Source of the DNA: Trypanosoma brucei
Lineage: Eukaryota
Assembly: GCA_000002445.1 (NCBI GenBank)
Contig: CP000071.1
Coordinates: forward strand, 896,001 to 960,000
DNA length: 64,000 nt
Direction: 5' to 3'
In this document: piece by piece, positions 7,311-34,586 of the stretch
Layout of the letters: the number at the start of each line of letters is the position of its first letter
Numbering within the stretch: position 1 is the first letter of the stretch
The notes under the pieces: model-generated
What the model saw: only the letters and a program-made list of their open reading frames with translations
What the model was told of the DNA's origin: nothing
The model's database searches: none
Position numbers and translations under genes: made by a program

Positions 7311-7462
7311 AAACGTGGGTCCTCATTCATCTTCTTGCTTGCGACTTATTCACAAAAATTATGTAGTGAGTATAGCCTTGAAGGGGAAGAAGGAAGCGGA
7401 GGGGGAAACACATCAAACGGGGGGAAGAACTGAACACCACACAAGGCGCCAAGTGTAACACT

Positions 7463-9676
7463 ATGAAATATAGTGGTGACACTCCTGTGGCGGATGATGA
7501 AGCTGTTGACAAGCTTCGAGGTGAGCTGGTCGACCTCCAGAAGCGCTTTATTCTCCTCTTCAAAGCTTCCGGCCAAAGTCTCGAGCAGATTCGGTCAACT
7601 GTTGAATCGTCCCTCAAGTCACGAGCAAATGAACCCACACAAGGTGGGCGATTAAGTGACAGGGACAGCATGCTGCAGGACCTCGTGAGAATTGTTGAGC
7701 GAACTCAGCGTTATGTACAGTTGGCTGGAAAACCTCCACTAGGTTCTGTTTCCGCAGATGCACTCCAGATAGAGTATCAATCGTGGGCAAGCAATATGCC
7801 TACTGCCAGTTCGCATCGCAGTCACGGGGATCATGCAACCACGGAGCAACGTGTGAAGAGTCTTCAACTTGAAAGAGATGACGTTAAGAGGAAACTGCAG
7901 GAAGCGGAAGAGAATAACGCGAAATTGCAGCGGAAACTAAAGGCCGCTGTGCAGAAGTATAACCACCTTGCGAAGAATACGAAGGAGATGGGCGAGCCCA
8001 GTCACACAACGAGAGCTCGCACTTTGAGTCCCAGTGCGCACAATGGCAATTCTTCAAAATCATCGGAAGCAGTGTCTAAACGCTTTACTGGTCACAGCTA
8101 CAGAGATTCCGCCGGACAGCGATCGTGCCGTCAAAATTCTTGTAATGATGTAGTCGGAGATTCTGCGTTTAACAGCCAGCACACCTCAGCCCGTGGTGGA
8201 TCATCGGAGTTTCTGGATGCGGTGCGGCAGGATAACGCCTCACTTCGGAGAGAGGTCACTAAGCTCAAAGAAGAGCTGCGGCAAACACAGCGAGGGGCTA
8301 TTGCGCGAACTAAACAAGGGGACGAGGATGTGGGATCATTGCTTATGAAAATTACTGGCTTGAAGCAGGAGCTTGTGTTGGAGGAGCGGCAGCGAATGGA
8401 CGCCTTGCTGCACTTGGGTGAGGCCAAGCGGGAAAATCAACGACTGGTGACCCAAGTAGAGGAGTTAAAACAACAGCTAGTGCACGTGCAGCAGTCGGAC
8501 GGCCGTGTCCCTGATGTAATCTCCGTCGAAAGCAAAGAGACAAACATTATGAATAGCCTAGGGAAGGAGCTGGGTCACACACAGCAGGTCGCTGCGATGC
8601 AAGTGTTGCAGGCGAAGGAATTGACTCGGGTGTTGGAGAGGATGCAGGACTTCTTACACTCGTCGTTTTTGAAGCAGAGGAAGTTGGTAACGGAGCTAGA
8701 AAAAGCGGGGAAAGGTTGGAGCACCACGCCCCTGCAGCTGGAGGCGGCGCAAACCCACGAGGGTTGCACGCCTGCAAATAAGGTGAAGATAGAGGACGCC
8801 AATGTGTCATCCCCTGGCGTGGAGTCGAGTGGAGGGAAGAGCAGAACGATATTAAAGGCTTCTGATGACAGTGGTAGTAGCGATTTGAACACTTTCTGTG
8901 ACCGGGTACTCACTGTGGACGACGTGGATCCTCTTACCTTGGGCAAGAATGATGGCGACACACATCTTCGTAGTCAGAACAGCGAACTTGTGAAGGAGAA
9001 TCAGCAATTACACGATGCACTTTCCAAACTTTCGATGATGTATCGGTCGACGAAGGAAAAACCCAAAAGTGGTGAGCGGTCGGTGATGGAACGTGAGGCT
9101 CTTCCTCCCGGAGTGAAGCAACCTGACAGGTCTGCTGAGGTTGCAAGCGCAAAAAGGGTTGTGAAGGAGCACGTGCGTAAAGATAATGCAAAAGCACATC
9201 GGGATGCCAAAAAAGAAAAGGCCCAATCCTCACTTCGGGAGCAAGTACCCCCAAAGCAGTTACCGGTGCAACCGCATCAGCTCCCCAAAGCACCAAAACC
9301 CCAAGCTCAACGTGATCTGCCACCAAAGTCACCCGTGCGAAGACACGACTCTCATCTGCAGCGGTCTCGGACGACGACACCGAGACGGGAAGCGCATGCG
9401 CAATACGACCAAAAGCAACGACACAACCTGTCAAGTTCATTGCAAGCTGAGACCGGCTATACTCAGTCGCCTTCAGCTTCTCAGAGTAGAGACGACCGGT
9501 CTTCTTCACATTCCTCCACTAGTACCGCTAGGTTTTTACGTAGATTGGCAGAGTTTCGTTTCCCAAAGGAGGGTGCTGCAAGTGTTCCTGATAGTGGCGA
9601 AAGAAACACAGATAGTGGTAAGGATGATGTGCGGAATTTCTCACCTCCCCGGCTGAGCTATATGAAGTCCACGTAA
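7463..9676 (+). CDS. coiled-coil protein with a basic Pro/Lys-rich C-terminus (hypothetical)
   Basis: The 737 aa ORF has heptad-like Glu/Lys/Leu/Gln-rich segments (e.g. 'LQLERDDVKRKLQEAEENNAKLQRKLKAAVQKY', 'EELKQQLVHVQQ'). The C-terminal ~150 aa are basic ('PPKQLPVQPHQLPKAPKPQAQRDLPPKSP'). Strong poly-T tracts upstream at 7141-7310. Confidence 0.55.
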   Translation: MKYSGDTPVADDEAVDKLRGELVDLQKRFILLFKASGQSLEQIRSTVESSLKSRANEPTQGGRLSDRDSMLQDLVRIVERTQRYVQLAGKPPLGSVSADALQIEYQSWASNMPTASSHRSHGDHATTEQRVKSLQLERDDVKRKLQEAEENNAKLQRKLKAAVQKYNHLAKNTKEMGEPSHTTRARTLSPSAHNGNSSKSSEAVSKRFTGHSYRDSAGQRSCRQNSCNDVVGDSAFNSQHTSARGGSSEFLDAVRQDNASLRREVTKLKEELRQTQRGAIARTKQGDEDVGSLLMKITGLKQELVLEERQRMDALLHLGEAKRENQRLVTQVEELKQQLVHVQQSDGRVPDVISVESKETNIMNSLGKELGHTQQVAAMQVLQAKELTRVLERMQDFLHSSFLKQRKLVTELEKAGKGWSTTPLQLEAAQTHEGCTPANKVKIEDANVSSPGVESSGGKSRTILKASDDSGSSDLNTFCDRVLTVDDVDPLTLGKNDGDTHLRSQNSELVKENQQLHDALSKLSMMYRSTKEKPKSGERSVMEREALPPGVKQPDRSAEVASAKRVVKEHVRKDNAKAHRDAKKEKAQSSLREQVPPKQLPVQPHQLPKAPKPQAQRDLPPKSPVRRHDSHLQRSRTTTPRREAHAQYDQKQRHNLSSSLQAETGYTQSPSASQSRDDRSSSHSSTSTARFLRRLAEFRFPKEGAASVPDSGERNTDSGKDDVRNFSPPRLSYMKST

Positions 9677-13089: not shown

Positions 13090-15398
13090 ATAGGAACCAT
13101 GGAATTCTCTGCAAGTGAGCGGTTATTGTAATGCTTGCGTGTGATGAGTAAGGGAATAAAAGTTGTGGAACTTCGGTTTCAATATCAGCGGCAAAGGGGC
13201 TACGCCATGGGCACACACATATGCATGTGTGTATGTGCGAGTAGGGCACCCGAATGTGTGTGCTTGGCTGCTACATCGCAGCCACGTGTTTGTGTTTGTG
13301 TGCGTGGCACGCTGCTTACTTTATTTTATTCTATTTTTTTTTTCGCATTTTCCCTACGTTTGTTAAATTTTCTCTTATTTCCACATAAAGTGCTGGATGA
13401 AATGAAGATAAACGACATGGTGGTGTAGGGATGAATCTCACCGAGGAAAAAAAGAAAAAAGGGGGAAAACGAAAAACACCACTAAAAACAAAACAAAAAA
13501 AACAAACAGTTCAACTCATACCTTAAAGAGAGTAAAGAGATGCCAAGAGGGGAACGAAAATCTCACAAACACATACTATCGATAGAAGATAGAAGTAAAC
13601 TCGCAATTGGTAAAACAAAAGGAGGGATGATGGTGATGATAAGGGTGCCGATGGTAAGGAGGTGGAGAGAACAGGAATGTTACGAGCAACTGCTGTTGCA
13701 ACTGGAGACGGGGGAGCGGCAATAAATGGAACGATACAAAAGGGTGAAGGTAAAGGCGACAGTAAAGGAATGTATTTGCGGTGAGTCGGTTCTTTTTCGT
13801 GTTGTATTGCTTCATTCTTTTTGTTTTATTTTTGTTTTAGAGGGTGCATATGTCTTCATCCCGTTTGCTGACTCAAATACCTTTCTAACAAACTTATTGG
13901 CCATTTATTCTTGGGCTTTCTTGTTTCCACACGTGGTTTTTCTTCTTTTCCTCTTTCGGGTCGTTTTCGCATCCATTCCGTCAACCTCCTCGCTATCGTT
14001 GTATTTTTTCCGGCTTCGTTCTTTGTTCCCACTTGTGTTTTTTTCTTTACTTTCTGTGCTTTTATTATGATTACTATTATCATTATCATTATTGTTTTTT
14101 TTTCGTTTTCTCTCCTTCCTACACTCCCCAAAACGAGAGAGAAAGGAAAAAGAAACTTGTACGCCACTTTCACAAATGGATGTTGGCGCACAGTTTTCAT
14201 TCCCCGTGTTCGTGTTTGTATAAAATCTATAGGGCATTATCTGGGACTTGCATGAGCGGTGAAAGCCGTCTTTGCTTGCTTCTCTCCTTTGCTCTCTTGT
14301 TTATTGTTTCTTTTTTCTATTTTGTGTGTGCGTGGCCGCTGCGTATCCAATGATTTTTGCACGCCTCGACTCCTCTCTCTCTTACTTTCTTTCGCTCCAG
14401 CGATAAGAAATAGGGAGAACAGCCACAACTAACTAACTAAATAAAAAAAAATAAAAAGAAACGGTCAGGAGGAAGAGAGGGAATAGTCAGGAAAACTAGA
14501 GAATGAAGTGGGAGAGCACGAATAAAAAAAGTGTAGGATGCTTTTCCTGCTGGCAATGCGGGTGTGAGGCAGCTAGGCTGTAGGTGTATTTGTGTATTTT
14601 GATCTTCGCGTGATTGAATACTCAGCTCTCGCCTCCACTTTTATTTTATTTTCCTCCATGCACCGTTCTCATACTTCACCTGTCATTTTCTTTCTCTTTC
14701 TCTGTGCTTCGTGCTTATAGCGAAGGATTCGGTACGCTTGACCGTGAGAGAGGGGGCCCACCAAGTGTTTTTTGTCTTTTTTTTTTTAAACTTTCAATCT
14801 CTTCCTTCCACTCATTTTCGTACTTTTGTATATCCTTTGCGTCTGTTTCTGCTTCATCCCGGTTCTTGTTTTTTTTTTTGCCCACGCTTCATTCTTCTGC
14901 TGTGGAGGGAGGGGGGAAGGGGTTTGAATGTGCCGTTATGAGTCTTGGGTCTAATGTCGACACAACCGTGAGGGTGCCGTGCTGTGGAATGGAGGTGAAG
15001 GAGAGGGAAGAATTTCAGGGAAAGGTGACAAAAAAGAGATTATGTGAAGTGAAAATAGAAGGGAGTGAAACAAAACACCAAAAGTAAAAAAAAAAGGTAC
15101 AGCGGCTAAGGGAGACGGGATGTGAAAGAGGACAGATGAAAGGAAACGAGCAAGTTTGTTTGGCCCCACGTGGCTCCCAGTTCCCCCTTCAACTACCGTC
15201 GACTCGACGATCGTGTGGGATTGTTTTGTCAGCCCTCCTCTCCGCTTCGCCTGGTCCCCCTTTCTTGCTTTCTTTTCTTTTTGTTTTGTGTGCGTGTTTC
15301 TATTCTTCCGGCCCAATGCGTGTCCCCAACGCGTAGGCAACCTAAAACGTTTTGGTTTGTTTTACAGTTTTCGCTTATTTTTCTCTTTTTCTTTCATT

Positions 15399-15417
15399 TG
15401 TGTGTGTGTGTGTGTGT
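15399..15417. repeat. (TG)9 microsatellite
   Basis: Direct read: tgtgtgtgtgtgtgtgtgt inside the T-rich desert. Confidence 0.9.
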
Positions 15418-17659
15418 TTCGCTTAGAGACTTCACTAGAGCCACCTGTCAATACCTTCACACGGTGCGCCGCTTTTTCTTCCATACTGCGCGCATGGACG
15501 TCTGAGGCTCATGTTCATGTGTGTTTTTCCTCGAGTGTACGACATAGCGGCGCTACTGGCGGCTGCAAGGTCGAGTCATTCCCCTTCTTTCTCGTTTGTT
15601 TCTTCTTTTGGATTTCTTGTCTTGTTTTTTTTTGTTAACGCTGTGCCCTTCTTTCCTCGCGTTCCTCGGAACCAATTGCGGTTTCTTTCGTTCTTATGTA
15701 TGACCCCGCCCCTCTTCCATTTGATGTCGCAACGGTCCACCTCTTTCTTTCTAGTGGCCACGTTTTTGTGTTAAGTTACTTGAAGTAGCGATGGGAGAAG
15801 CCTTTTATTGTTTTTTTTGTTTCAGCAGTCCTCTTGTGCCTGTGTTCGTGTTTTTGCGCTTTTGCTTGTGACTGCGGGGCGGGTGTCTTTTCTTTTTTTC
15901 TTTCTCTGCAATCAATTCACTCGTGTGCAATCACGTCTTTCTCAGTTGATTTTTTTTTGTTTCGAGGGTTTGTTTTTCTCCTTTTCCCACTCCCTGTACG
16001 GATGTGCGCATGGAACATACATAAATATATATATGTATTCGTTTCTATATGTTTATTTATACATATATGCGTACATGCTATTTATTTACTGTTGGCCTTT
16101 GGATCTTTTGATGGGATTAGGCCGGCGGGAAAAGGAACGGAGGGTGAGACGTTGGTTGAAGGGAGTTGCTGACACTGCATTGGGGGAAAACTGCGAGTGG
16201 CGGTGATTGTGTGCGTGTTGTAAGACATGAAGCAATGATGATGTGGAAACAGACAGTGAAAGGCATCTGTACGCATACGCGGCGGGCCTTTTCTCTCCTT
16301 AATTTTCGTTCTGTTTCTTGTTTTTCCCCCCTCTTATCTCTCCCTACTTCTCACACTGCGGCTGTGTCTGTGGCGTGACGTTGTTTGGCACATTTATCTT
16401 GTGGAGGGCACACTTTTTTCTTTTTCCTGTTTCTTTTTTCCCTTTTCCTCTTACAACATTCCCATTAACTACCGAAATGGGACAAATTTGGAGGGAAGGC
16501 TGGAAACTGGAGAAAACACCAAAAACAAAACCAAAACAACAACGGCACCAAACGGATGAGCGGGCGAGTGGAGTTCGAAGGTAGACAAGAAATACATATG
16601 CGAGAGGATGTATTTTACCGTTCCTCTCCTTTCAATAGTTTTCCTTCCCCCCTTTCCCCAGACACGAAATATCCCCTTTTCAAGTTTTAACCTGTGTACA
16701 TGCTTTGCGTCTTCCCATCTTCTTTGCTCTTTGTTATTATTGTTATTGATTTACTTATTTGTTTAACGTGAACTTTTTAACTGTTCCCATTTCGTAGCAG
16801 CATGTGGGTTGAACCTCGACCCGAGTGCCTCAACTTTGGCTGCCGCCGGACTGAAAGTGCTGCTGTGGGAAAGTCAGAAGAGGGAAGTGCAAGAACGACG
16901 CGGCAATAATGGAGTGCAACCGCATGCACAAGTTTGTCGGGCTGGTGTTGTCACGCAGCGTTTATTTGCGCCTGTACATGCATGAATACGTGCGTGTTTA
17001 TGAGGGGTTACGAGGAAACAAAGTGCGGGCATGAACTCCAGGGGAGGAGGAAATAAATAACTGGAAAAAAAAAGGAAAGAATAGTGTGGCCGATGCGTAT
17101 GGCTCTGGTGGAAGATGAGGTTCATGTGCGGCAACTCACCGGGCTCTACTCTACATTTCTCTTTTCTTTTTTTTTTTGTCATGCAAATGTTTTTCTCTCC
17201 GATGTTCGTTCCTTTTGCCTCTCTTCCTCCCTTTTGTTTAACGGTGTGACGTGCTTCATAAGCCTTCTCCGTAGTGCAGTAACTGAAGCAGTTCATCGTT
17301 GCTGGGGGGGGGCATGTGCTTGCGTTTTGAAGGTGTGTGTGTGTGGGACTCGCGTGGGTGCGAACTAAACCAAGCCAAGAAGGAAAGAAAAGAAAAAAAA
17401 TGCAGAACAGAAAAAGAAAAATAAAGAGGAGGGAAAAAGATTAATAACTAGACGGTGTGGGGACTACACTGATAAGATGACCAAATTGGTTTGTTATGTT
17501 TTCCAAGTACGGTGGAAGAGTTTCGATTGCGCATTCCCTCCCTTTTTTTTACCTTTCCTACGACCACTGCGTGCTTCCTTCTTTTCATCCAAACGCCCAG
17601 TTGGGGGCCAAGGAAGAGGAAGAAACATTGGCTCGGATTTCTCCATTAAGGATGTCTGC

Positions 17660-17660
<1 letters not shown>

Positions 17661-17686
<26 letters not shown>
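17661..17686. repeat. (AT)13 microsatellite
   Basis: Direct read: atatatatatatatatatatatatat. Confidence 0.95.
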
Positions 17687-17691
<5 letters not shown>

Positions 17692-19833
17692 TATTTGCTT
17701 GTTTTTTTGTACCCTCCTCCAATTTTTGTTTTCCTCACCATGCGCATGTTTTCTTCTTTCCCTTCTCTCTTTTCTTGGCTATATGCCCGCTGACTGTTTT
17801 GGAGGCGGTAAGGACATCAAACGAAGAAAAATTCAGTGCAGGTGACAAAACAAAAGCAAGTACGACTCAGCAATACGTAAGTGTATATGTATTTTCTCGC
17901 ATATGTGTATTAACATATTGCTCCACCCCCATTCAGCTTATGCACCTTTTCCCTGTATTTCTGTATAGTTTGTGCTGCATTGCCGTTAAGTTCACCCTTA
18001 CGATGCCAGCGGTGATGATCTTTTTTTTCTTCTCACCATTGCTTTCCTCCTCCTCCTCCCCTTTTTTGTCTCTTGTATTTGCAGTGGCATCGTTTCTAAC
18101 GGCCATGCGGATCACAATTTTGTACCGACCGCACGGACATGCACTCACGCTGCCACCACTACTGCTGCAGATGTCACCCGCAGACACTCCGGTGTCTCCT
18201 TAGCATTTCGGGCCCTTCAATACTTTTACTCGCTTACTTCATCGTAACCATCACGGGGAGGGGAGACGGCGTATATGAAGGCAGGAGCAATAATATGAAG
18301 CAACATCAACTTTTGTCCCAACTGGAATGCTAACACTCGAAACGGAGCTGACACTTCTCACCTGCAAGGAGGGTAAAATAACAAAAAGTTATCCTTCTAT
18401 CCTACCGTTTCTACCTTTTACAAGCACTTGCGGAGCCACTTGGGACACTTAGGTGCTTTCTGCTCAGTAGGGCCGCGTTCAAAACCAAAAAAAAAAATGA
18501 ATCCTTTATGTGACCTAAATCCCGACGGCTGGTTTGCGGTCACAAATAAACCTACAGTATGAGCGGCTCCAAAGCGGGTTGACACTCGATGTTTCTCCAG
18601 CCAAATGCCACAAACGCATCATTTGCTGCACATATGCAGAGTTGGGGGTTGTGGTGGAGGTTTTGTACCTTGACGATCGCTCTGCATGCTGCATTCGGGA
18701 CACCACCACTCGAAGATGCACCGCTTTGGGGGAAATATGGGGGATACAATTCGGTGTGCTGATATAACTCTGCGCACCACCGATGATCTGTTCCGTCGTA
18801 TGTAAATGCGTTAATCATAAACGTACATAGCGACTGAATTGAGCCCGAAACCGGAAGCGATGTGTATTGTAAATTGCACTGTGTTTGGCAATGTGTTGTG
18901 CGTTGGGGGACCAAAGTCATGTGATGAGGCGCTGCGAGCATAATATTCGCGTGGTTACATACCAATACGTTGGTAGCGAATGGTTTTGCCCTTTACTAAC
19001 CGGGTGGCACCCGCACAACTCTGCAAGGACTTGATCCCGCTTAAGTTTGCGTGCACTGATGAAAAACAACCTGCTTATATTCGAGCGTGGTCCGGGCACC
19101 ACTAACCGTGTTTTGATTCCGTTATATTACCTCCATCCCCTTTTCGTGGTTGATGCACTACCCGCGAGCCGTTCTTTTTATTTGGTCTCAAATGTCTACT
19201 CACGTGTTTTGTTGTTGTGCCTGCGCTACATTTATCAGCCGATGATGCGGGAGACGTAGGAAGTCTGTGAGTTGTAGCAAAAGGTCTTTCTGTTGGCGGT
19301 ACGGTGTTTGCTTTGGCTTTACTCCGTTTCAGTGCTTATGAGCGTTCGTTCAGTTGTGGTTCCACGCTTCGTGTTGTACTGAATGGGAATACTGCGTTTC
19401 GCCTGTCACACTCTGTGCACGTGGTTTGTTCGTGAGTGTACTTTCTTTCCAGGTGTTTGAGTGTCTGTGTGCCGCTACAATTTATCCTTTTGTGTGTTGC
19501 CTTACTGCCCTTTGCTCCGCGGTGAAGCATTTCCTGTAGATTGTGGACGTTCTCAAACTTTTTTCCTTATTCGCCTTCCCTTTTCTCCCAGTGGTAGGCA
19601 GCGTGAAGCTGTGGATACTGCACCGGTATATTTCTCGTTTCCGTATGTTTCGCATATCCTCATGTTTTCACAGTTTCTTTCTCAATGCTGTCCGCTGCAC
19701 CTTCATCGCTGACGTGCTGTACGGCTGCCGTTACAGCCCACACATTGGAATGTGCCACCATCCGTACGTGTACGTGAAAACAGTGTTGTTTTGCGTCTCC
19801 AGTCGTCCGGAGCAGCGGCTTGAACGTGAGTAT

Positions 19834-20253
19834 ATGCGTGGTCTTATCGAACACCTTGTCGCGTGCGATGCGAAGCACGATACGCAGACAAAACTAGAAC
19901 TGATGCGGTTTGTTGACGTCGTGCCGGCCGCCGCAAGCCTCGGTGGTAGCGGCCACAGTGAGGTGCTGAGCGCCGGAAAAATGGGTGGTGAAAGCGGAAT
20001 GTCCTCTTTCTTCACGGGTACTCTCTTCCCCGCAGTGTTGGGTCATGTGTTACTATACGACGCGGTTTGCGTATGTATGTCAGGTGGTTTGTACGACGAT
20101 GCGGCGCGCGACTGCGTGGCGCAGGTGGCGGCAAGGCTAGGTGTCTCTCAGCACGGCCGGGAAATGATTGAAAAAGCGGCAATACGTGAGCATCAGTTGG
20201 CTGCGATGAAGCGGCAGCTGCTTCTCCTACCTGAGACCCCGCCACTGCGTTGA
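19834..20253 (+). CDS. small hypothetical protein (~140 aa); the start is uncertain
   Basis: The 3' part of ORF 19543..20253 has coding-like composition ('MRGLIEHLVACDAKHDTQTKLELMRFVDVVPAAASLGG...'). The 5' 97 codons are F/L/S/C-rich, i.e. a translated pyrimidine tract. Alternative ATGs lie at 19750 and 19543. Confidence 0.3.
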   Translation: MRGLIEHLVACDAKHDTQTKLELMRFVDVVPAAASLGGSGHSEVLSAGKMGGESGMSSFFTGTLFPAVLGHVLLYDAVCVCMSGGLYDDAARDCVAQVAARLGVSQHGREMIEKAAIREHQLAAMKRQLLLLPETPPLR

Positions 20254-21126
20254 GAGACGCTTTGGGAGGTAACTGCAAGAGCGGCACCCGTCTAATTTTG
20301 GAGTGGAAAGGCTTGCAAGAGCTGTGTAGTTGTCTTACATTGTCTTTGGCGTGTGCATGGGCAAGGTTGCGGTATTGGTGTGCTTCCCAAATCCTGCTGC
20401 TCCATGCGTTTTATTCCTTGTTGTCACTGCTATGTTTTGCGTGTCCCATCGTGTTAGTAAATTAAACCTCAATAGCCACCACGACTCGATCATCAGAACA
20501 TTGGAGTGTTGACGCATTGGCTTAGAACCTGTGACCCGCCTCTTCGCAAATGTGGCGCCGGTGCATAGCGATGTTTTTGCCACTGTGTTGATTGTAATGC
20601 CTAAGTTGACGTGCACAACTTGATCCCTTAGCGTTGAGGAGGGATGCGCGAAGGCGAAGGGATTGAATGTCTTCTCTTGATGTGTTTTTTTTCTTATTGT
20701 CGACTTTCTTGTCGGCGTTGCCGTGCCCCCCAATTGGCGTGAGTCGAGGAGCTTGCACACATAGCTTGCGCGCACAGCATCACTAGACTTCTGTGGGGTT
20801 CATGTGTGGTGTGTCTCGACATTGGCATTGCGATCGCTATCAAAAGCTGCAATAGCGGATAGTGTATAGACGGCAGTTACAGCCGTGATCGCACAGCGGT
20901 AAGAGGCATAATGTTTATAGTGCACGACACAAAACAATGAATCCAATGGCGACCTGTGCCTTCCCCCAAATAACCTGGAAAAATATCTCTGTCTATTTAC
21001 TGTGAAGTTGGACGTAGCTCTGCTTTCTTCCTTCTCCTTTTTGCCTTTGCCCACTACAGTCATTCTAACAAGGTTAGCAGCCTTTTTGTTGTCGTTGTTG
21101 TAAACCCGCAGGAAACAAGTACATAT

Positions 21127-23953: not shown

Positions 23954-25969
23954 ATGCTCAAGAGAGTTATTGCGAGGGCAAGCCTCCCCAAGTCGTTGGA
24001 TGTACTGCCGCTTTTTTCTTTTTCGAAGAAGGGCAAGGGTGGTATCGAGAAGGTTGCTGGTGACAGCCAAGTAAAATCCCTTGTGTCCCACCCAAAATGC
24101 GTGTCGGCACATTTTTGCAATCCTAAGGACCACTCTGAAGCTTTACGTGAAGACGACGATGGAGGTGATGTGGATAAACACGACGCAGTGGATGTGCCTT
24201 TTGGTTTCCGTGATGCACCGGGGAATATTTTGTTGGATCCGGAGCGGCGGCGCCTCTTTGCCGGCATTGGTGAGAAACCAACGGTGCGGGACTATCGCCT
24301 AGCCGTGACGGCTGCTGTACGCGAAGCGTCTAAGTTAAAAGCATCAGCACTGGTTATGCGTTCTCTGCCAAATGTGCTGTATTCGGTTGGAGACTTGTTT
24401 CAGCCTGCGAGCGCTCTCCCGGCGGAGGACGTAGCTGAAAAAACGGTTACTTATGCCGTCGCGGCGGCGTATCGGTACGACCGATTTCTATCGAAGGCTA
24501 AAGGTGGCTTGCCCCCTCCGAGCCGTGGTAGGCGAAATAAGGCGGTTGCAGAAGGGAGTCATGAGCAGTTGAATTTAATTATTGACTGCGGGGACAAGAC
24601 TTCTATTGCCAGTGGAAATATCATTGGACATTGCATAAATGACGCACGAAACCTGGGTAATCTTCGTGAGGATGAGGGCACTCCGCAGTTTTACTGTGAG
24701 TGGATTCATCAGGAACTGGCCCCACTTGGCATTAAGGTGCAGAACGTGTTGCACGGAGAGCAGCTTGAGAAGGCGGGGTTGAACCTCATATACAACGTTG
24801 GAAAGGGGTCAAAACACACGCCTTATTTGGTTGTGTTTGAGTACGTCGGTGACAAGAGGAGCAATAAGGCAACTGCCCTCGTGGGCAAGGGTGTTACATT
24901 TGATTGCGGTGGTCTTAACATTAAACCATTCGGGTCGATGGAGACGATGCACATGGATATGATGGGTGCAGCCACGGTTATGGCTACGATGAAGGCTATC
25001 GCCGAACTTCAACTACCAGTTAACGTTGTGGCCGCCGTTGGGCTCGCGGAAAACGCGATCGGTCCAAGCAGCTACCACCCATCATGCATTTTGACTAGCC
25101 GCAAAGGACTAAGTGTTGAGGTGTTGAACACGGATGCCGAGGGGAGGCTTGTACTTGCTGACACACTGACTTACCTTCAGAAGGACGCTAAACTAGTGAA
25201 GAAGGCCGATACGATCATCGACATTGCGACCCTCACAGGCGCAATTGTTGTCGGCCTTGGGAGCCGGCGTGCAGGTCTCTTTGGCAACGACATCGCGCTG
25301 GTGCAGCAGCTTATGGCTAGCGGGCGAAGCAGTGGGGAGGAGGTTTGGCCGATGCCCATCGGGGATGAACACCAGAGGGCGATCAAAGGGAATATTGCCG
25401 ACCTTGTTAACGTACCGAGCGTGCGTGAGGGCGGTTCCTGCACTGCAGCGGCGTTCCTAAGCAACTTTGTGGAGAAAGATGTGAAATGGGCGCATCTTGA
25501 TATTGCAGGTTCGGGGATGGGGACCGACAAGCCAAGGGGATTCCAACCAGCGGGGGCACCCGGATTTGGTGTTGAGCTTCTGGTGGACTACTTTCGCCAG
25601 CACGTCATGGCTTCTTCAAAGGGAGTGTCGACGGGTAAGGATGGAAGCCACGGTGATGCGGAAGAGTCTACTCAAGAAGAGGGTGCTAATGCTGAAGTGA
25701 GTGAGGAAAATACCAAAAGATCTAAGACCAGCGCAGGTGGAAAGAAGTTAACGAAAAATGCCGAACCGAAGGAAGGAAAGGGCAAAGAAGCAAAACCCAA
25801 CGTGAAGGGTACGAAAGGTGGCAGAAAGGTTGGAGAAAAAGGCACGGAAGGCAAAGGAAAAGCGGCCAGCCCGGCTGAAAAGAAGAGGGTGAAAAAGGCA
25901 CCTGCGGCCAAGCAGGGTCGCCGGGCAGTGAAGGGGAACCCGAAAGGAAAGAAAAGGTCTGGCAATTGA
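23954..25969 (+). CDS. M17-family leucyl aminopeptidase with a C-terminal Lys/Gly/Ala-rich basic tail
   Basis: 'NTDAEGRLVLADTLTY' is the M17 signature NTDAEGRL. 'VGKGVTFDCGGLNIKP' matches the M17 GKG.TFDSGG.S.K motif. The metal/bicarbonate-site context 'MKAIAELQLPVNVVAAVGLAENAI' is present. The last ~110 aa run 'KKLTKNAEPKEGKGKEAKPNVKGTKGGRKVGEKGTEGKGKAASPAEKKRVKKAPAAKQGRRAVKGNPKGKKRSGN'. Confidence 0.85.
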   Translation: MLKRVIARASLPKSLDVLPLFSFSKKGKGGIEKVAGDSQVKSLVSHPKCVSAHFCNPKDHSEALREDDDGGDVDKHDAVDVPFGFRDAPGNILLDPERRRLFAGIGEKPTVRDYRLAVTAAVREASKLKASALVMRSLPNVLYSVGDLFQPASALPAEDVAEKTVTYAVAAAYRYDRFLSKAKGGLPPPSRGRRNKAVAEGSHEQLNLIIDCGDKTSIASGNIIGHCINDARNLGNLREDEGTPQFYCEWIHQELAPLGIKVQNVLHGEQLEKAGLNLIYNVGKGSKHTPYLVVFEYVGDKRSNKATALVGKGVTFDCGGLNIKPFGSMETMHMDMMGAATVMATMKAIAELQLPVNVVAAVGLAENAIGPSSYHPSCILTSRKGLSVEVLNTDAEGRLVLADTLTYLQKDAKLVKKADTIIDIATLTGAIVVGLGSRRAGLFGNDIALVQQLMASGRSSGEEVWPMPIGDEHQRAIKGNIADLVNVPSVREGGSCTAAAFLSNFVEKDVKWAHLDIAGSGMGTDKPRGFQPAGAPGFGVELLVDYFRQHVMASSKGVSTGKDGSHGDAEESTQEEGANAEVSEENTKRSKTSAGGKKLTKNAEPKEGKGKEAKPNVKGTKGGRKVGEKGTEGKGKAASPAEKKRVKKAPAAKQGRRAVKGNPKGKKRSGN

Positions 25970-27206: not shown

Positions 27207-27647
27207 GTGATGGCCTATGTTTCTCCAGCACGCGTGAAATGGGCTACTTTTGTTTTTTGGAACTTCTTAGATCCCACATTCCGCTTGCACTTCAGGTACT
27301 ACCAGCGGAAACTAGCCGTGGATCGGTATCTGGAAAGGCTCGGTGTGGTAGCGAATGTTGGTATTGGTGTTACTTTTGGGCTTATGTTCTACAATCTCCT
27401 GATCGCCCGCTTTCTTCTCCCTCGTTCCGTCAGCTCAGGACATAGCATGGAGGAGAACGCAAATGAGGTACTCCGCGTGTTGAAATACGATACGACGAAG
27501 GAGCTTCCTGCGTTTTTGCTCATGCGTGCAAAGCGCGAGGTGATATCTAAGCTGCATGTCGCGGCTGATAAGGCCGAAGTGAAGCGACAGCGCGAGGAGG
27601 TGAGGAGGCTCCTTGACAGCATTGATCAGCAGCGGTTACCGAAGTAG
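27207..27647 (+). CDS. small hypothetical protein with one predicted transmembrane helix
   Basis: 146 aa ORF. 'GVVANVGIGVTFGLMFYNLLIARFLL' is a hydrophobic helix. The C-terminal half is charged and coiled ('KAEVKRQREEVRRLLDSIDQQ'). Pyrimidine-rich tract upstream at 26200-26470. Confidence 0.35.
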   Translation: MMAYVSPARVKWATFVFWNFLDPTFRLHFRYYQRKLAVDRYLERLGVVANVGIGVTFGLMFYNLLIARFLLPRSVSSGHSMEENANEVLRVLKYDTTKELPAFLLMRAKREVISKLHVAADKAEVKRQREEVRRLLDSIDQQRLPK

Positions 27648-28085: not shown

Positions 28086-31000
28086 GTGTTGGAAATGCTG
28101 AGAAACTTGCAAGCCCCGCCTGATTTAGAACCCCCAGCACCTCAGCTGCTTGCCGTGCGGGGTTGCTCGCTCATCACGTCGCGATGGCTCCAGGTGCTTT
28201 CGTACATTCTGGCGGAGGTTTGCAGCTCTGCGACACTACTAGATGATTATGTGCGCGCCACGCTGAATGTGTCGCATCACTTGCTCTCCGCGTGGCACAG
28301 CATAGCGGTGGCGGCTCATCGCCCGCGTGAACAACGTACGAGCGGGAGCTCTTCCGGTTGGCGCTCTGTTTCTAGGGATGGTACCGTACCACAGACGGAC
28401 CGTGTGCGCTGGGAGAAGGAGGCTACAGCTGCTAGGCATGTCGAGCTAGTTCGTCACCTGGTTGTCATGGCGCTGCTGCAGCAGTTCTTGTCTGTGCCCG
28501 TTTCTGGGAGCTCTGACACTGTGCTGCGTGACTTGCTCTTACGACACCGTCGATGGCGTCAGCGGAGGGCTGGTAAGGGCCGATTCACCGAGCTCGGCGA
28601 CGCGGAGGGTGGTTTGGTAGGGGATGATGATAATAACTGCGATGGCGGGGGCCCTCGTGCGCCGCGTGGACGGGACCGGGAGGAAAGCAAAAACAATAAG
28701 CGGCCACGGCCTCACTCTGTGGATCGCTTTGGGTGTTCTTCTTCATGGTCCACCTTGCCATCGATGGGCCAGCGACCGGACGATGATTGTTCCATTTGTG
28801 ACGAGGAGCGTTGTGACGACAACACGTGCTCTTCGGTGGACTTGCGGTTGTTTATGCGTGCGGCTGTCGCCATGAACCCCACCGCCTGCGCCCTGCAGCT
28901 CATTTCGCGTTGCATCGTGTGTATCCAGAGTGATTGGAGTTGTGACTGCAAGGACGGTGCGCCTCCCACGTCGCCGGTGGGTTTCCGTGGGCCTGATGCT
29001 GGGGACGGTGGCGTTGCGGGTAACCGCTACTTTGTTTTCGTGGCAAGTCGTGACGTTGCTGCATGTGAGCACTCAGGGCCATGCTTTGGAAACCGCAAGT
29101 TTATTTTTGTACATTGCGAGCGGCCTAGCTGTGAGGATGTTGAGCCTTCGCGTTGCTCTCGTCATTGTCCGGTAGTTATACCACCCCCGGAAACCGCAGC
29201 TGGCACCGTGGCTCCTATTGCTCTTGTGGCTTCGCGGAGGGGTGGGGGGCCGTTGCTTGGAGACGGCGGTGTGTGGGGTCATGTGATGCGGTCGATGAGG
29301 CAACTGCGACTTGAGCTGGGTCGAGGCGGCTTGGGCGTCCCCGCTCGTAGTGGTGTAGTGGCTTGCTTGCCCTCTGTTGCTCGCCCCGCTTGCAATGCTC
29401 AGGGCAGGCCGTCCTTTTCGAGAGAGGGGGCTGGGAGGTTCTTACTTCCGCCCCTCGCACCGAACCGTAGGTGCTCCACTGAGCACTGCATGGGATGCGG
29501 CCCCCTGCCGACCGATGCGCGCTCCCAGCGGGGGATTGACAGCGGGGAGGATGGCAGCGTGGGTGAAAGTGACGAGGGACGATCATCGTGGTTCCTTATG
29601 TATTCTGACCGGTGCAGCGCCACTGGGGCTTTCTTCTCCGGTGCAGTGCCCTCCGTGGGGCGGCTCATCGCGTTCCCTTCCCCTCTTACAGGCTCATCGA
29701 GCGAGCCGGTGCCGGTGGTGCAGCCCACATCCAATTTGGAGAGTGTGGACGTGCCCCTAGAGCAAGCCATTTTTCTGCCACCTGCTGCTGGACACGAAGT
29801 GCGCCATACAGGAAGGCCGTCTACGGAGGTGGACGAGTACAGTAAGTCAGTCATGGCTGGTCATGTTGCTTTCGCGGAGGAGGTGGCTGCGCGCCTGGAG
29901 TTCTGGTGTGCCCGTGGAAGCCCCCGTCGTTGCTACTATGACCCCGTGGTGCTAAACTCTGCAGGGGATAATGGTGATGGGGCTTCTGGGGGCACCGATG
30001 TTGGTGCGCGTCGTGGCAGCAATGACACGAATGGGTGCGTGTCTGAGGGAGAGAATGCGGGTGACTGGATGGAGGAAACTATGCCACTGATGTTGCTGTT
30101 CACTCAGGTCGGTACGGTCCGTTTCCAGTTGCTAGGAGACACAGTGTATTGCAACCCGAGGAGCCGGGGACTCCTTATTACCGCGATTAGTGAGGCAACG
30201 GAGTTGGTGATTTGTGGGACGCGTGAGAGCCGCGTTCATCGTGGTTGGCACAAGCGCTGTGACAATGGTCGTAGTGATGGACGCGCTGGTAACGGAGTTG
30301 GTCGCCGGAGGACGAGGGGAGAGAGCGTAAGTGGTGTTTGTGGTGCGAGCGACCTGACGCTTTCAGCTGGGGTTTCAGGTGGCGCCTCTCTTCATGTGTA
30401 CTACGACGTCGCAGTGGAGGTGTGCGTATGTTGGGCGCAAGGTGAAGTGCTTGGAGATGGCGAGAAAGACTGCCAGACAGCGCTGGAGGGGACGAGCGTG
30501 GGGAATGCTAAAGGTTCTCCATATGGCTCACGCTGCGGTCAGCTCCTTTCGAGACGCGAGCAAAACCAACGGAGGAGTGAACGGCTGAAGACGGAGTTCC
30601 GCCTCGCGCATTCTGATCGTTTGGATGCCCTCCTCGTTGACGGTCGAAACGCAAAGCCCATAGCCTCCGTCACGCTTGTCCCATCGACAGCTCCCGGTTG
30701 GCCCACGCAGTCTGCTACTCGGGCCGTGCAGGACACTCGGTTTATCGTTCAGTCTTTCAGCCACTACGTGGCGCCACTCCTGAATCACCTAAGGGAGGAC
30801 AAGGTACTGATGGTTGACATGGATCGCACGTTGGTGGACAACGCCATCATTTCAAGAAACCGGCTTGCCCATGGCTTCCTTGACAACCCGCTGTGGAGGG
30901 CGCAGTTTCATATGGGGTCTTCCCAAGAGGAGGGGCAGGCCGATGAGCGGGAGGCTCTGGAGAGGCATTGCGAGGCGTCGGGCATGGTAAGTTACTTTGT

Positions 31001-32009
31001 ATCTGAGGATCCACGCTGCGGGATGCGGACGGAGACTGTTTACGTTCGACGTGGCGTGAGGAACCTGCTACGGCGGTTCGCTGTGGAGTGGGGCATTCCG
31101 CTGTTGCTGGTAACCAAATCGTCGCGCAGCCGCGCTGAGGCCATACTGCGGCAGCTGCTCGACCCCGAGGGGGAGCTTTTCCCGATTGATCGCGGACGTG
31201 TTTACACAGCGGAGTTCCTAGTGAACTCAGTGCCCCACTCCGGCTTTTCCTCGCAAAGTATGGGTTCCTGCCCCACCAGTATTGATGGCGTGACAGATGT
31301 TGGTGCCATGGACGCAGAAAGTTGGCGTGAATACCGGCGGCGTTTGTGTGACTCGCGGAAGTCCACTACTGATGTACTGCGGGTGTGGGACCAGCTGTTT
31401 TCCTCCACTGAGGGAGTAGCACCGGTGCGTCGCGCACGAAGTGTTGCCGTGCTGGATGACATGCCTCAACTGTGGAGCGAGTCAGACTGGCCACGCACCG
31501 TAGCTGTTGCTCCGTACACGCTGGACCGTGTGGATCCAGATGAGTACTTTTCAGCCGGAGGCCTCATCGCGTCTCTGCTACTTTCAGTGCTCTATAGCAA
31601 GAATTCTGTGGTGTGCCCGTTACGTATGCGTCGCTTCGTTGCCGGGGGAAGTGGTTCCTATGGGTGCGGGACGGTATATGGTGAGGAGGCCACGTGCGAT
31701 TTCCGTGGCGGTGTTCAAGGGTATGGCCCTGGTGGAGAGCGCGACACCGTTTATGGCGAGGTGGAAGTACAACATGAGGACAGCACCTGTCATACGTGCA
31801 TGTCGGATGACACCGATTCCTTGGATTACTGTGGAAGGTCGTCCCCCCCACCGACTCCCTGTTTCGTTACCCTGGAGGGTGGTGGGGGTGTTTCTGTAGC
31901 TGGAGAGGAAGGGGTGGGCGATATAGTGGTTGTTGAGGAGGGAGGTTTAGATCTCCCGGAGGTGAGTGTATGGAACACTGCGGACGTGGAGGATGTAGCG
32001 CCTCTATGA
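28086..32009 (+). CDS. large (1307 aa) protein with a C-terminal FCP1/NIF-like HAD phosphatase domain; the N-terminal two-thirds are low-complexity, Cys/Arg/Gly/Ser-rich
   Basis: 'KVLMVDMDRTLVDN' (~30790) carries the HAD DxDx(T/V) motif in FCP1/NIF context (LVLDLDETLV). Downstream 'LLLVTKSSRSRAEAILRQLLDPEGELF' and 'VAVLDDMPQLW' (~31441-31480) match NIF motifs II/III. Cys clusters 'CSICDEERCDDNTC' and 'RCIVCIQSDWSCDC' lie near 28780-28960. GC-rich codon usage produces many spurious antisense ORFs over this region. Confidence 0.6.
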   Translation: MLEMLRNLQAPPDLEPPAPQLLAVRGCSLITSRWLQVLSYILAEVCSSATLLDDYVRATLNVSHHLLSAWHSIAVAAHRPREQRTSGSSSGWRSVSRDGTVPQTDRVRWEKEATAARHVELVRHLVVMALLQQFLSVPVSGSSDTVLRDLLLRHRRWRQRRAGKGRFTELGDAEGGLVGDDDNNCDGGGPRAPRGRDREESKNNKRPRPHSVDRFGCSSSWSTLPSMGQRPDDDCSICDEERCDDNTCSSVDLRLFMRAAVAMNPTACALQLISRCIVCIQSDWSCDCKDGAPPTSPVGFRGPDAGDGGVAGNRYFVFVASRDVAACEHSGPCFGNRKFIFVHCERPSCEDVEPSRCSRHCPVVIPPPETAAGTVAPIALVASRRGGGPLLGDGGVWGHVMRSMRQLRLELGRGGLGVPARSGVVACLPSVARPACNAQGRPSFSREGAGRFLLPPLAPNRRCSTEHCMGCGPLPTDARSQRGIDSGEDGSVGESDEGRSSWFLMYSDRCSATGAFFSGAVPSVGRLIAFPSPLTGSSSEPVPVVQPTSNLESVDVPLEQAIFLPPAAGHEVRHTGRPSTEVDEYSKSVMAGHVAFAEEVAARLEFWCARGSPRRCYYDPVVLNSAGDNGDGASGGTDVGARRGSNDTNGCVSEGENAGDWMEETMPLMLLFTQVGTVRFQLLGDTVYCNPRSRGLLITAISEATELVICGTRESRVHRGWHKRCDNGRSDGRAGNGVGRRRTRGESVSGVCGASDLTLSAGVSGGASLHVYYDVAVEVCVCWAQGEVLGDGEKDCQTALEGTSVGNAKGSPYGSRCGQLLSRREQNQRRSERLKTEFRLAHSDRLDALLVDGRNAKPIASVTLVPSTAPGWPTQSATRAVQDTRFIVQSFSHYVAPLLNHLREDKVLMVDMDRTLVDNAIISRNRLAHGFLDNPLWRAQFHMGSSQEEGQADEREALERHCEASGMVSYFVSEDPRCGMRTETVYVRRGVRNLLRRFAVEWGIPLLLVTKSSRSRAEAILRQLLDPEGELFPIDRGRVYTAEFLVNSVPHSGFSSQSMGSCPTSIDGVTDVGAMDAESWREYRRRLCDSRKSTTDVLRVWDQLFSSTEGVAPVRRARSVAVLDDMPQLWSESDWPRTVAVAPYTLDRVDPDEYFSAGGLIASLLLSVLYSKNSVVCPLRMRRFVAGGSGSYGCGTVYGEEATCDFRGGVQGYGPGGERDTVYGEVEVQHEDSTCHTCMSDDTDSLDYCGRSSPPPTPCFVTLEGGGGVSVAGEEGVGDIVVVEEGGLDLPEVSVWNTADVEDVAPL

Positions 32010-32398: not shown

Positions 32399-32806
32399 AT
32401 GCAAGTCTCTCCACGTGTGCCAAAAGTGAAGGCGAAAACCCCATACGACCTTCCAGAAAGGGTGCGGTGGTACCACATATTGTGGGAAATGCGCAAGGGC
32501 GAGTTTCGTCGTTCTTATATTTCCATGCAGCGCCGCCACTGGCGCATTTTTTTGAAGTACGAGAGTCACTTGATCTACGAACGCGCGGTGATGGGCCTCT
32601 TGGCAGCAACGGTGATATATGCCCTCTCTAATCTAAATATCGTGAAGGCGGTTGTACGCCTGCCGACCGAGGATATTAATGAGCTGCTCAAAGAGGATGT
32701 GTGGCAGGGTTATCGGAACGAAGTGAATCAAAGGAAGGAGCACGCGAATAAAATGCTCGAGGAGTCGGCGTTCATAAGGGATAAAAACAAGCCGTTTTCA
32801 AGTTAG
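32399..32806 (+). CDS. small hypothetical protein (135 aa) with one hydrophobic helix
   Basis: ORF contains 'AVMGLLAATVIYALSNLNIVKAVV' flanked by basic/charged segments. No motif recognised. Could be a subunit of a kinetoplastid-specific membrane complex (inference only). Confidence 0.3.
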   Translation: MQVSPRVPKVKAKTPYDLPERVRWYHILWEMRKGEFRRSYISMQRRHWRIFLKYESHLIYERAVMGLLAATVIYALSNLNIVKAVVRLPTEDINELLKEDVWQGYRNEVNQRKEHANKMLEESAFIRDKNKPFSS

Positions 32807-33086
32807 GTGTAGTGTAGCACATGCTTTGAATTGACGCGAGCGGACTTTGATACGTTTGTTTGGTGGGCTTCATCTGTGCTCTGGATGGGCGTGTAGGATG
32901 TTGAATCGCGCTTGCTTTTACCTTCCACTTTGTGTGCATGCAGTTGGTGTGCCCCATGCAATTTAGTTTTCCATCTAATTCTCTCTTGTCAACGTTCGTT
33001 TCTTTTTCTTGTTCATGGTGAGGATCAAGTCACGCGCACACGTAAGTAATTCTACACAAGCATCTTCCCCACTGAGGAGCACCCCA

Positions 33087-34586
33087 ATGGACGTATCGCG
33101 GTTTCGACACACACAGGCTGTACCGGCACGGCAGGACCAACAGTTCCTAAACCTGACTCCTTCTGCAGCGCGGTGGGAGTGCAGCAACCTTATCGCCTGT
33201 AACGACCGCTTCATTGCGATACCGTGGTTGCAACTTGGTAGCACGGCTGTTCTGCGCCACACTGATTGCGGGAAGTTGGCCTCGAACCCGCCCATACTTT
33301 TGGGCCAGGAGGGGGACATCATTGATGTCGCCTTCAATCCATTTGACTCGTCGAAGCTATTCACAGCGAGCGAGGACGGGACCATTATGGGGTGGAACAT
33401 CCCCGAAGAGGGTCTGACGCAGAACTGCTCTGACAACATTGTTCACCTGCAAGGCCACTCCAAGAAGGTGGGTCTACTGAGCTTCCACCCCAGCGCCGCC
33501 AACGTGCTGGCTTCCGCGGGTGCTGATATGGTAGTAAACGTGTGGGATGTCCAGAAAGGTGTCGCAAAAGAAGTGGTGAAGTGCCACGCGGAGCAGATCA
33601 GCTCGCTGGATTGGAATCTTGATGGTTCGCTTCTTTGCACCACATCTAAGGATAAAAAACTAAACATTGTGGATCCGAGAAGCCAAAAAATTGTCTGCTC
33701 CAGCGGCGCTAGTGAGAGCACCAAAACTCAGCGTGCTCTTTGGGCACGACGTGCCGACCTTGTCATTACAATTGGAGTAAATACAATGCAAATGCGTCAG
33801 GCAATGGTATGGGACATCCGCAAGTTGGCGGCACCAGCGAGCACTGTGGATGTTGACCAGTCATGTGCTGTTTCTATGCCCTTTTTTGACGAAGACACAA
33901 GCCTATTTTATATTGGAAGCCGCGGTGAGGGCGGCATTCGCTCTTTCGAATTGAGAAACAGTCGGCTCATTAACTGTTCTTCGTACTCCTCATCGGAGAT
34001 TCATCGGGGGCTTTGCATGGTTCCCAAGTGGATGTTGGACACACACAAATGCGAGATCGCCCGCTTTTATGCCCTTACACAGAAGTCAATGTACAACGTT
34101 CAGATGCTGTTACCACGCAAAACTGCAGATGAGGAGCTTCAAACTGACGTGTATCCTCCCACCTTTGCAAATGAACCCGCTATTACCGCTGATGAGTACT
34201 TTAGTGGTGTGAACAAGGAACCTCTTGTCATGAGCATGCAGGCTGTTTTTGATGGTAAAAGTCTTGAGGCGACAAAAGCTGCTGAGACTAAGCGCCGGGG
34301 AGTACCTCGCCCTTCAGAGGTGGAGTCGGATGATGACGACTCCTCCGCAGACGAGGCGGTGACATCATCCCGGCAGAAACACGCGGACCCCAACGCTGTG
34401 CGGGGTCCCGCCCATTCCGAAGGTATCAGCAGCCAGACATCATCGCAGTTGTTAGCTCTTGCCTCGCTATTGGGGCAGCAACAGGCGGAGGTGCAGCGTT
34501 GTCGTGAGGACCTTCAGAAGAAGGAGAGCCTTGTCATGGAGACAATCGCAAAGATAAAGGCCCTTGCCTCTGGTAGTCAAGCGTAA
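33087..34586 (+). CDS. coronin (WD40 actin-binding protein)
   Basis: N-terminal 'MDVSRFRHTQAVPARQDQQFLNL' matches the coronin signature (SKFRHVFG.P.K.DQCY.D.). WD repeats 'GHSKKVGLLSFHPSAANVLASAGADMVVNVWDV' and 'CHAEQISSLDWNLDGSLLCTTSKDKKLNIVDPR' follow. The C-terminus is coiled-coil 'QQQAEVQRCREDLQKKESLVMETIAKIKAL'. The start is placed at ATG 33087, not the ORF-track 33009. Confidence 0.85.
   Translation: MDVSRFRHTQAVPARQDQQFLNLTPSAARWECSNLIACNDRFIAIPWLQLGSTAVLRHTDCGKLASNPPILLGQEGDIIDVAFNPFDSSKLFTASEDGTIMGWNIPEEGLTQNCSDNIVHLQGHSKKVGLLSFHPSAANVLASAGADMVVNVWDVQKGVAKEVVKCHAEQISSLDWNLDGSLLCTTSKDKKLNIVDPRSQKIVCSSGASESTKTQRALWARRADLVITIGVNTMQMRQAMVWDIRKLAAPASTVDVDQSCAVSMPFFDEDTSLFYIGSRGEGGIRSFELRNSRLINCSSYSSSEIHRGLCMVPKWMLDTHKCEIARFYALTQKSMYNVQMLLPRKTADEELQTDVYPPTFANEPAITADEYFSGVNKEPLVMSMQAVFDGKSLEATKAAETKRRGVPRPSEVESDDDDSSADEAVTSSRQKHADPNAVRGPAHSEGISSQTSSQLLALASLLGQQQAEVQRCREDLQKKESLVMETIAKIKALASGSQA

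Follow-up and report, generated by a model that had tools for sequence, protein, structure and literature searches.

A divergent FCP/SCP-type HAD domain interrupted by lineage-specific loops in the Trypanosoma brucei protein Tb927.8.3080

A 64,000 nucleotide stretch of the Trypanosoma brucei genome (positions 896,001 to 960,000 of contig CP000071.1, assembly GCA_000002445.1), referred to here as the window, contains the gene Tb927.8.3080, which is annotated as "hypothetical protein, conserved". The complete coding sequence (Q57W65 / XP_847139.1) runs from 28095 to 32009 and encodes 1,304 amino acids (aa) followed by a stop codon. Our analysis indicates that the product is probably a kinetoplastid-specific multi-domain protein which carries, at aa 903–1170, a divergent and loop-expanded HAD phosphatase of the FCP/SCP (NIF) branch that is closest in detail to FCP1. 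Positions given below are those of the window and features are on the forward (+) strand unless stated otherwise.

The phosphatase-type domain and its catalytic motifs

The domain (aa 903–1170, 30801–31604) retained all four HAD motifs, the conservation of which was assessed in an alignment of 15 sequences (A3) and one of 20 sequences (A4). Motif I, D908-M-D910-R-T912 (30816–30830), was invariant in all 15 and all 20 sequences. Motif II, V-T1007-K-S-S (31110–31124), was anchored by T1007, which was at least 90% conserved (Ser in T. vivax), and by K1008 and S1009, which were invariant in both alignments. The motif III lysine, K1089, lies within the sequence SRKS (31359–31361) and was invariant in A4 and at least 90% conserved in A3. 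Motif IV, V-L-D1121-D1122-M-P (31449–31466), is followed by W1127, and its two Asp residues, the Pro and the Trp were invariant in A3 and A4. Additionally, D915, N916 and R985 showed the same invariance as P1124 and W1127 in the 15- and 20-sequence alignments. An earlier note on this DNA had quoted DMDRT, VTKSS and VLDDMP from the region 30.79–31.48 kb, and all three lie where it said.

In HAD phosphatases of the FCP/SCP type, motif I supplies the nucleophile with its first Asp and the acid/base with its second, and an Asp-Asp pair at motif IV is FCP1-like. Conservation of the catalytic motifs in the Tb927.8.3080 family extended to relatives with 29% identity to the query. As the full catalytic set is kept down to this level, the domain is probably active as an aspartyl-phosphatase rather than a pseudo-enzyme. 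A pseudo-phosphatase or scaffold, in which the HAD fold would bind rather than catalyse and the real function would reside in the large N-terminal module, would have a precedent in fungal and animal Tim50, where the HAD fold serves as a presequence-receptor domain. The heavy interruption of the domain by loops, and the finding that the approximately 60% of the protein outside the domain is equally conserved, would both agree with such a role. However, catalytic residues of motifs I to IV that are all invariant or nearly so would be unusual for a pseudo-enzyme, and we regard this explanation as very unlikely.

The assignment to the NIF branch came from comparison with profile models, for which the gathering scores were 21.8 bits for PF03031 (NIF) and 26.4 bits for PF00702 and the cut-off of the FCP1 model TIGR02250 (FCP1_euk) was 135.25 bits. 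Four compact homologues of Tb927.8.3080 passed PF03031, with scores of 40.3 (P0019), 36.3 (P0018), 30.9 (P0016) and 22.4 bits (P0020); the first three had been found at E-values of approximately 1e-25 to 1e-29 and P0020 was a weaker match (E 1.7e-8). The domain encoded in the window also passed, just above the threshold (22.5 bits, E 1e-4), once aa 925–957 and aa 1044–1080 had been removed. These deletions fall within two lineage-specific insertions. Insertion 1 (aa 919–957, 30849–30965) is partly helical, lies between motif I and the beta-hairpin and is approximately 200 aa long in Leishmaniinae; insertion 2 (aa 1044–1080, 31224–31334) is a disordered, variable loop. PF03031 misses the native sequence because these insertions split the domain. 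Family members scored higher on TIGR02250 (E 1.5e-9 to 4e-7) than on the Dullard-like model TIGR02251, although the best score on TIGR02250, 38.2 bits, was below its cut-off. A family-specific extension adjoins the HAD core on its N-terminal side (aa 815–902, 30537–30800). It is conserved in the profile, and the AlphaFold2 (AF2) model predicts helices at 820–838 and 893–902 and strands at 840–849, 854–863 and 881–889.

Structure prediction pointed to the same branch. A model of aa 815–1179 built from A3 had a predicted local distance difference test (pLDDT) score of 78 and a predicted template modelling (pTM) score of 0.71. When this model was compared with the PDB using Foldseek, the S. pombe Fcp1 structures 3ef1, 4xpz and 3ef0 were the first matches (E 1.4e-6), followed by CTDNEP1 and SCP1-3, and generic HAD proteins appeared only from rank 16; UBLCP1 and Tim50 were also matched ahead of the generic HAD proteins. 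The predicted domain is a cap-less HAD fold closest to the solved FCP/SCP structures. An hhalign comparison of A3 with human SCP1 (a sequence identical to PDB 3pgl_A) paired VYVRRG..LLLVTKSS with VLKRPH..CVLFTAS, such that motif II aligned with FTAS (T152) of SCP1. The FCP1/NIF-type call of the earlier note, for which it had proposed a structure prediction and a NIF profile search as checks, was thus borne out indirectly, by the Fcp1 match of the model and by the scores of the compact homologues and the loop-trimmed domain.

By analogy with the established HAD/FCP-SCP mechanism, the domain would need Mg2+ and remove phosphate by way of an aspartyl-phosphate intermediate, with D908 as the nucleophile and D910 as the general acid/base. 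Phosphate would be held by T1007 and K1089, and the metal would be bound by D1121 and D1122. Cap-less domains of the FCP/SCP type have an open active site that admits macromolecular substrates, and for this reason phospho-Ser/Thr proteins would be the likeliest substrates.

A number of observations weigh against this account. The NIF profile search proposed by the earlier note succeeded only for the compact homologues and the loop-trimmed domain: the full native protein gave no match to PF03031 at E-values up to 10, and the isolated domain (aa 815–1175) scored 13.9 bits (E 0.045), below the gathering score. The NIF assignment thus passed this check by a narrow margin. The native protein was similarly below threshold on PF00702 (17.5 bits) and on TIGR02250 (16.7 bits). 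Sequence and profile searches of the PDB (with the single domain and with A2, A3, A4 and A5) returned only marginal generic HAD motif-I matches and noise; no FCP or SCP chain was significant, the best being 4xpz (E 1.7). The hhalign match to SCP1 covered only 40 columns with 54% probability, and the structural evidence is a predicted model built from 15–20 sequences. Additionally, literature and supplement searches for Tb927.8.3080 returned no activity, expression, localisation or essentiality data. Neither Tb927.8.3080 nor Q57W65 was in any main text of the literature searched. The gene was likewise not found in the supplementary data of four studies (nuclear proteome, cell-cycle phosphoproteome, TrypTag and structure-based annotation), for at least two of which the search covered part of the data.

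Within the NIF family, some proteins act on substrates other than proteins or are no longer phosphatases, which also counts against a protein phosphatase here. The domain could instead act on a non-protein phosphoester, such as phosphatidic acid or another lipid or metabolite, and CTDNEP1, which belongs to the lipin pathway, was among the top matches of the predicted structure. TbTim50, another T. brucei DxDxT/NIF protein, is reported to have phosphatidic acid phosphatase activity (PMC8546626). Against this, the predicted fold best matches the cap-less, protein-directed FCP/SCP group, and neither a membrane-anchoring domain (Pfam) nor a lipid-binding domain was detected in the family, so that a substrate of this kind seems rather improbable.

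The N-terminal module and the C-terminal tail

The earlier note had described the region upstream of the domain as approximately 900 aa of low-complexity sequence. This description did not survive analysis: the sequence entropy of Tb927.8.3080, measured over 60 residues, was 3.5–4.0 bits throughout, which indicates a biased composition and not low complexity. A full-length alignment of four Trypanosoma proteins, together with a local alignment of 14 family members, defined eight conserved blocks in the N-terminal 800 aa, at approximately aa 25–75, 100–135, 246–277, 310–341, 497–512, 577–617, 659–715 and 768–790 (blocks A to H). An AF2 model of aa 1–1190 had an overall pLDDT of 59.7, and the 559 of 1,190 residues (approximately 47%) with a pLDDT below 50 formed the loops between the blocks. 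Most of the blocks had a pLDDT of approximately 75–94, with lower values for blocks E and F. On this evidence the N-terminal region would be a module of folded blocks set on disordered loops, and it may serve in targeting or regulation.

Blocks A and B (28167–28499) are helical, are found family-wide and have a pLDDT of 84–94, with predicted helices at 30–46, 51–56, 59–74 and 100–132 and a disordered loop at aa 80–98 between them. Block C (28830–28925) is predicted to consist of two helices and a strand, with a conserved terminal ISRC motif. Block D (29022–29117) is a predicted beta block (strands 310–317 and 335–341) that contains the invariant R319 and the motif C324-x-H326-x3-C330-F-G332-N (29064–29084), in which C324, C330 and G332 are invariant and H326 is nearly so. 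Block E (29583–29630) is a conserved strand with the invariant C507 (29613–29615) in the sequence RCS. Block F (29823–29945) is a long conserved helix with the motif FAEE..ARLxFW..RG, in which E596, R600 and W604 are invariant. Blocks G and H (30069–30464) are alpha/beta blocks with a pLDDT of 77–93, separated by a disordered loop at 712–765, and block G carries the invariant C707 (30213–30215). In the loop-trimmed core alignment of the module (A5), the invariant residues were R319, C324, C330, G332, C507, E596, R600, W604 and C707, and H326 was nearly invariant.

Two polypyrimidine tracts (11 and 15 nucleotides) were also noted at 29629–29687, inside the open reading frame (ORF), where they code for ..FFSGA..FPSPLT... 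Polypyrimidine tracts elsewhere in the window are intergenic. The orthologues keep the ORF intact, and nothing indicates that these tracts serve as an internal trans-splice signal.

The Cys content of Tb927.8.3080 is raised (3.6%). Two clusters had been singled out in the earlier note as possible Zn-binding sites, and both are present in the sequence: CSICDEERCDDNTC (cluster 1, aa 232–245, 28788–28829) and RCIVCIQSDWSCDC (cluster 2, aa 272–285, 28908–28949). Together with the relatively high Cys content, their presence in the T. brucei protein is what favours a low-complexity N-terminus with zinc-binding Cys clusters. The clusters proved to be species-specific, however: the orthologues of T. 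vivax, T. cruzi and T. theileri lack them. Cluster 1 is not conserved (alignment columns 300–320) and lies in a predicted disordered loop, with a pLDDT below 50 across aa 157–244. Cluster 2 starts with C273, its only broadly conserved residue, at the end of a folded block; the remainder is specific to T. brucei and mostly enters the disordered segment 282–305. The invariant Cys/His set of the protein is a different one (C324, H326, C330, C507 and C707), with CxHxxxC(F/M)GN at its centre. Zinc binding by the two clusters is therefore extremely unlikely, and the invariant set is a better candidate for a structural metal site.

A basic KRPR motif (aa 202–205, 28698–28709) lies in a disordered, otherwise variable loop of the module and was invariant in the four aligned Trypanosoma sequences. 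The Leishmaniinae relatives have HKR[RP]RL at a comparable N-terminal position. These motifs suggest a candidate monopartite nuclear localisation signal (NLS), through which KRPR could direct nuclear import, and the location of the protein may be nuclear.

The earlier note had placed the phosphatase domain at the C-terminus of the protein. The domain is in fact followed by a tail of 134 aa (aa 1171–1304, 31605–32006) that is variable, rich in Gly, Cys and acidic residues and poorly conserved outside two motifs. No BRCT domain and no other Pfam match was found in the tail at E-values up to 10. The first of the motifs, an acidic-hydrophobic "VVEE" motif (IVVVEE, aa 1277–1282, 31923–31940), sits approximately 20 aa before the C-terminus. 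It recurs in every Trypanosoma member and in several of the more distant ones, with five copies in P0020. The second is the C-terminal peptide V-W-NTA-D-V-E-D-V-A-P-L-COOH (aa 1292–1304, 31968–32006), which is family-wide: the pattern W-x(3-9)-[VA]E[DE]V-x-P-L-COOH closes nearly every full-length family member, and a VEDVVPL unit is present two to three times in proteins of the Leishmaniinae type. The terminal W..VEDVxPL peptide may be a short linear docking motif and, with the upstream VVEE motif, could dock a partner or fold back on the enzyme.

The gene, its family and its locus

The ORF listing gave a single uninterrupted ORF at 28086–32009, which was counted as 1,307 codons from a GTG start under the bacterial code. 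The first ATG, read from the DNA, is 9 nucleotides downstream at 28095, and the resulting protein of 1,304 aa is equal in length to T. brucei TREU927 XP_847139.1/Q57W65. That entry shares a 90%-identity cluster with P0001, a 99%-identical match to the window ORF. In T. vivax, T. cruzi and T. cruzi marinkellei the ORF is kept end to end as one protein (37–41% identity by BLASTP, 42–44% in the alignment), which places it far beyond chance and confirms the reality of the ORF reported in the earlier note. A spliced-leader sequence, looked for as evidence of a junction, was not found at the 5′-end of Logan contig L001.

Two further remarks of the earlier note, on an extreme bias in G+C content at third codon positions (GC3) and on a lattice of spurious antisense ORFs that it would generate, did not stand. 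The GC3 of the Tb927.8.3080 ORF is 0.597, inside the range of the 16 other large ORFs of the window (0.52–0.61), and the antisense ORFs are ordinary, the longest being 151 aa.

A profile of the C-terminal region built from four Trypanosoma orthologues (A2) was used to search 1.84 billion cluster representatives exhaustively. This returned only 21 relatives; canonical NIF proteins, of which there are thousands, were not among them. Tb927.8.3080 forms its own 21-cluster family. All relatives with a source name are trypanosomatids (Trypanosoma, Leishmania, Leptomonas and Novymonas), and further compact members came from environmental assemblies. The Trypanosoma members are from T. brucei subspecies, T. 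congolense (TCIL3000_8_3090), T. vivax, T. cruzi, T. cruzi marinkellei, T. theileri and T. conorhini; the other named members are from Leishmania (Viannia) species, including LPMP_231060, Leptomonas seymouri and Novymonas esmeraldas. Every named member is called hypothetical or uncharacterized, and the NCBI and UniRef names of Tb927.8.3080 itself are likewise limited to these two terms.

The Leishmaniinae orthologues (P0008–P0011 and P0013, from Novymonas, Leptomonas and Leishmania among other sources) are 2,284–3,247 aa long and have been enlarged by low-complexity insertions. As the insertion of approximately 200 aa between motif I and the beta-hairpin lies inside their HAD domain, HMMER splits that domain into two to three pieces. 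At the other extreme, gene 4964–7531 of an environmental contig (L002; ENA ERZ21831265, contig ctg67882l) encodes a compact family member of 855 aa. Its neighbours on this contig are eukaryotic genes (SNF2 helicase, dynein light chain and kinesin) that follow one another closely and lie mostly on the same strand, a layout which suggests an unsampled kinetoplastid-like organism.

The target gene was identified as Tb927.8.3080 because its neighbours resolve to Tb927.8.3060, 3070, 3090 and 3100. Upstream, an M17 leucyl aminopeptidase at 23954–25969 is Tb927.8.3060, and a 145-aa ORF at 27210–27647 (+) fits Tb927.8.3070, a 17-kDa protein that is a diverged ATP synthase subunit b. Downstream, a 135-aa ORF at 32399–32806 (+) matches Tb927.8.3090 (Q57W64, 16.3 kDa), and a coronin at 33009–34586 is Tb927.8.3100. 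Tb927.8.3090 had itself been considered as the identifier of the target and was rejected, since its 16.3-kDa product belongs to the small ORF at 32399–32806. In a proteomics supplement, Tb927.8.3090 is labelled mitochondrial and tied to post-transcriptional regulation. The kinetochore phosphatase KKIP7 was also rejected as the identity of Tb927.8.3080, as KKIP7 is a phosphatase of the PPP type.

In the window, every ORF of 250 aa or longer (17 in total) is encoded on the + strand, which is the polycistronic layout of trypanosomatids. An 8-kb stretch at 13090–21126 has a lower G+C content (0.43–0.49) and no ORF of this size, encoding only ORFs of 120–236 aa on both strands. tRNA and Rfam scans across the whole window, including 13090–21126, gave no matches.

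Comparison with FCP1 and other NIF proteins

Tb927.8.3080 resembles FCP1 (S. pombe Fcp1, 3ef0/3ef1/4xpz; TIGR02250) in having a DxDxT aspartyl-phosphatase HAD core without a cap, in the beta-hairpin that follows motif I, with extra helical material inserted between the two, and in a motif IV Asp-Asp followed by a conserved Trp. It could accordingly be asked whether Tb927.8.3080 is the functional FCP1 of trypanosomes, a nuclear phosphatase of the RNA polymerase II (Pol II) RPB1 C-terminal domain (CTD) in which the N-terminal module and the C-terminal peptide take the place of the BRCT domain and TFIIF-binding helix found in canonical FCP1. Motif IV of FCP1 consists of Asp-Asp, a conserved Trp and a V-x-P-Y strand, and the same combination recurs in the family. 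The C-terminus of FCP1 is an acidic TFIIF-binding helix, which the acidic-hydrophobic C-terminal peptide of Tb927.8.3080 resembles. In the comparison of predicted structure, Fcp1 came first among solved structures by two orders of magnitude; FCP1_euk was the best NCBIfam model for the family, and the NLS-like KRPR motif is conserved. Additionally, a CTD phosphatase of the FCP1 type has still to be assigned in trypanosomes (PMC5829719).

We nevertheless consider this explanation unlikely. Tb927.8.3080 has no BRCT domain after the catalytic domain, and the family scores only 16.7–38 bits on the FCP1 model, with 16.7 bits for the native protein, against a cut-off of 135 bits. For these two reasons Tb927.8.3080 is not an FCP1 orthologue by the FCP1 family's own criteria. 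It further differs from FCP1 in its kinetoplastid-only N-terminal module of 800 aa, its two long lineage-specific loops and its unique W..VEDVxPL end. The statement in the earlier note that trypanosome Pol II lacks canonical CTD heptads agrees with the literature, in which RPB1 is described as being without heptads yet phosphorylated (PMC2175518, PMC5829719). Purified T. brucei Pol II pulled down RPAP2/Rtr1, and the co-purifying proteins list no FCP1; a TFIIF-like complex likewise did not unequivocally co-purify an FCP1, and no FCP1 has been tied to either (PMC5829719). The role could also be taken by one of 14 other FCP-like genes of T. brucei. No evidence connects Tb927.8.3080 with TFIIF or Pol II, and nothing in our analysis demonstrates a link to transcription.

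A more specific proposal is that the N-terminal module is, with its invariant Cys/His set, an undescribed metal-binding fold that acts together with the W..VEDVxPL peptide to bring the FCP1-like domain to the RPB1 tail, which has no heptads, or to some other machinery of the nucleus. This is a long shot. If it were true, Tb927.8.3080 would be the missing kinetoplastid equivalent of FCP1, built on a wholly different targeting architecture.

The divergent FCP/SCP-branch phosphatase that we favour can also be set beside the other NIF proteins (SCP1-3/CTDSP, CTDNEP1/Dullard, UBLCP1 and TIM50). The Tb927.8.3080 family is like these in that its compact members pass PF03031 and its motif II aligns with that of SCP1. 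The families part at motif IV, which is Asp-Asn in SCP1 (LDNSP) and Asp-Asp in the Tb927.8.3080 family. SCP, CTDNEP1, UBLCP1 and TIM50 are enzymes of approximately 180–300 aa with a single domain or with ubiquitin-like (UBL) or transmembrane (TM) additions, whereas the domain of Tb927.8.3080 is split by insertions.

Within T. brucei, the closest comparison is with the 14 FCP-like phosphatases catalogued in the TriTryp phosphatome, including the characterised TbPIP39 and TbTim50, with which Tb927.8.3080 shares its superfamily and DxDxT chemistry. The catalogued proteins are 198–729 aa long and carry IPR004274. Tb927.8.3080 has 1,304 aa, and neither it nor Q57W65 is among the 14. Kinetoplastids are described as having an "expanded family of FCP1 phosphatases" (PMC2175518, PMC5829719), few members of which have been characterised. 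Tb927.8.3080 would add to these a trypanosomatid-wide FCP1-like member which escapes domain annotation because its loops break up the domain, and it is an example of how insertions can conceal known domains when parasite proteomes are searched with profiles. Handles for finding partners and substrate would be the N-terminal module and the candidate docking peptide at the C-terminus, for instance through a D908N trap or loss of the last 13 residues. In comparison with these known systems, Tb927.8.3080 is an overlooked and structurally unusual extra member of a known phosphatase family, and not a new kind of system.

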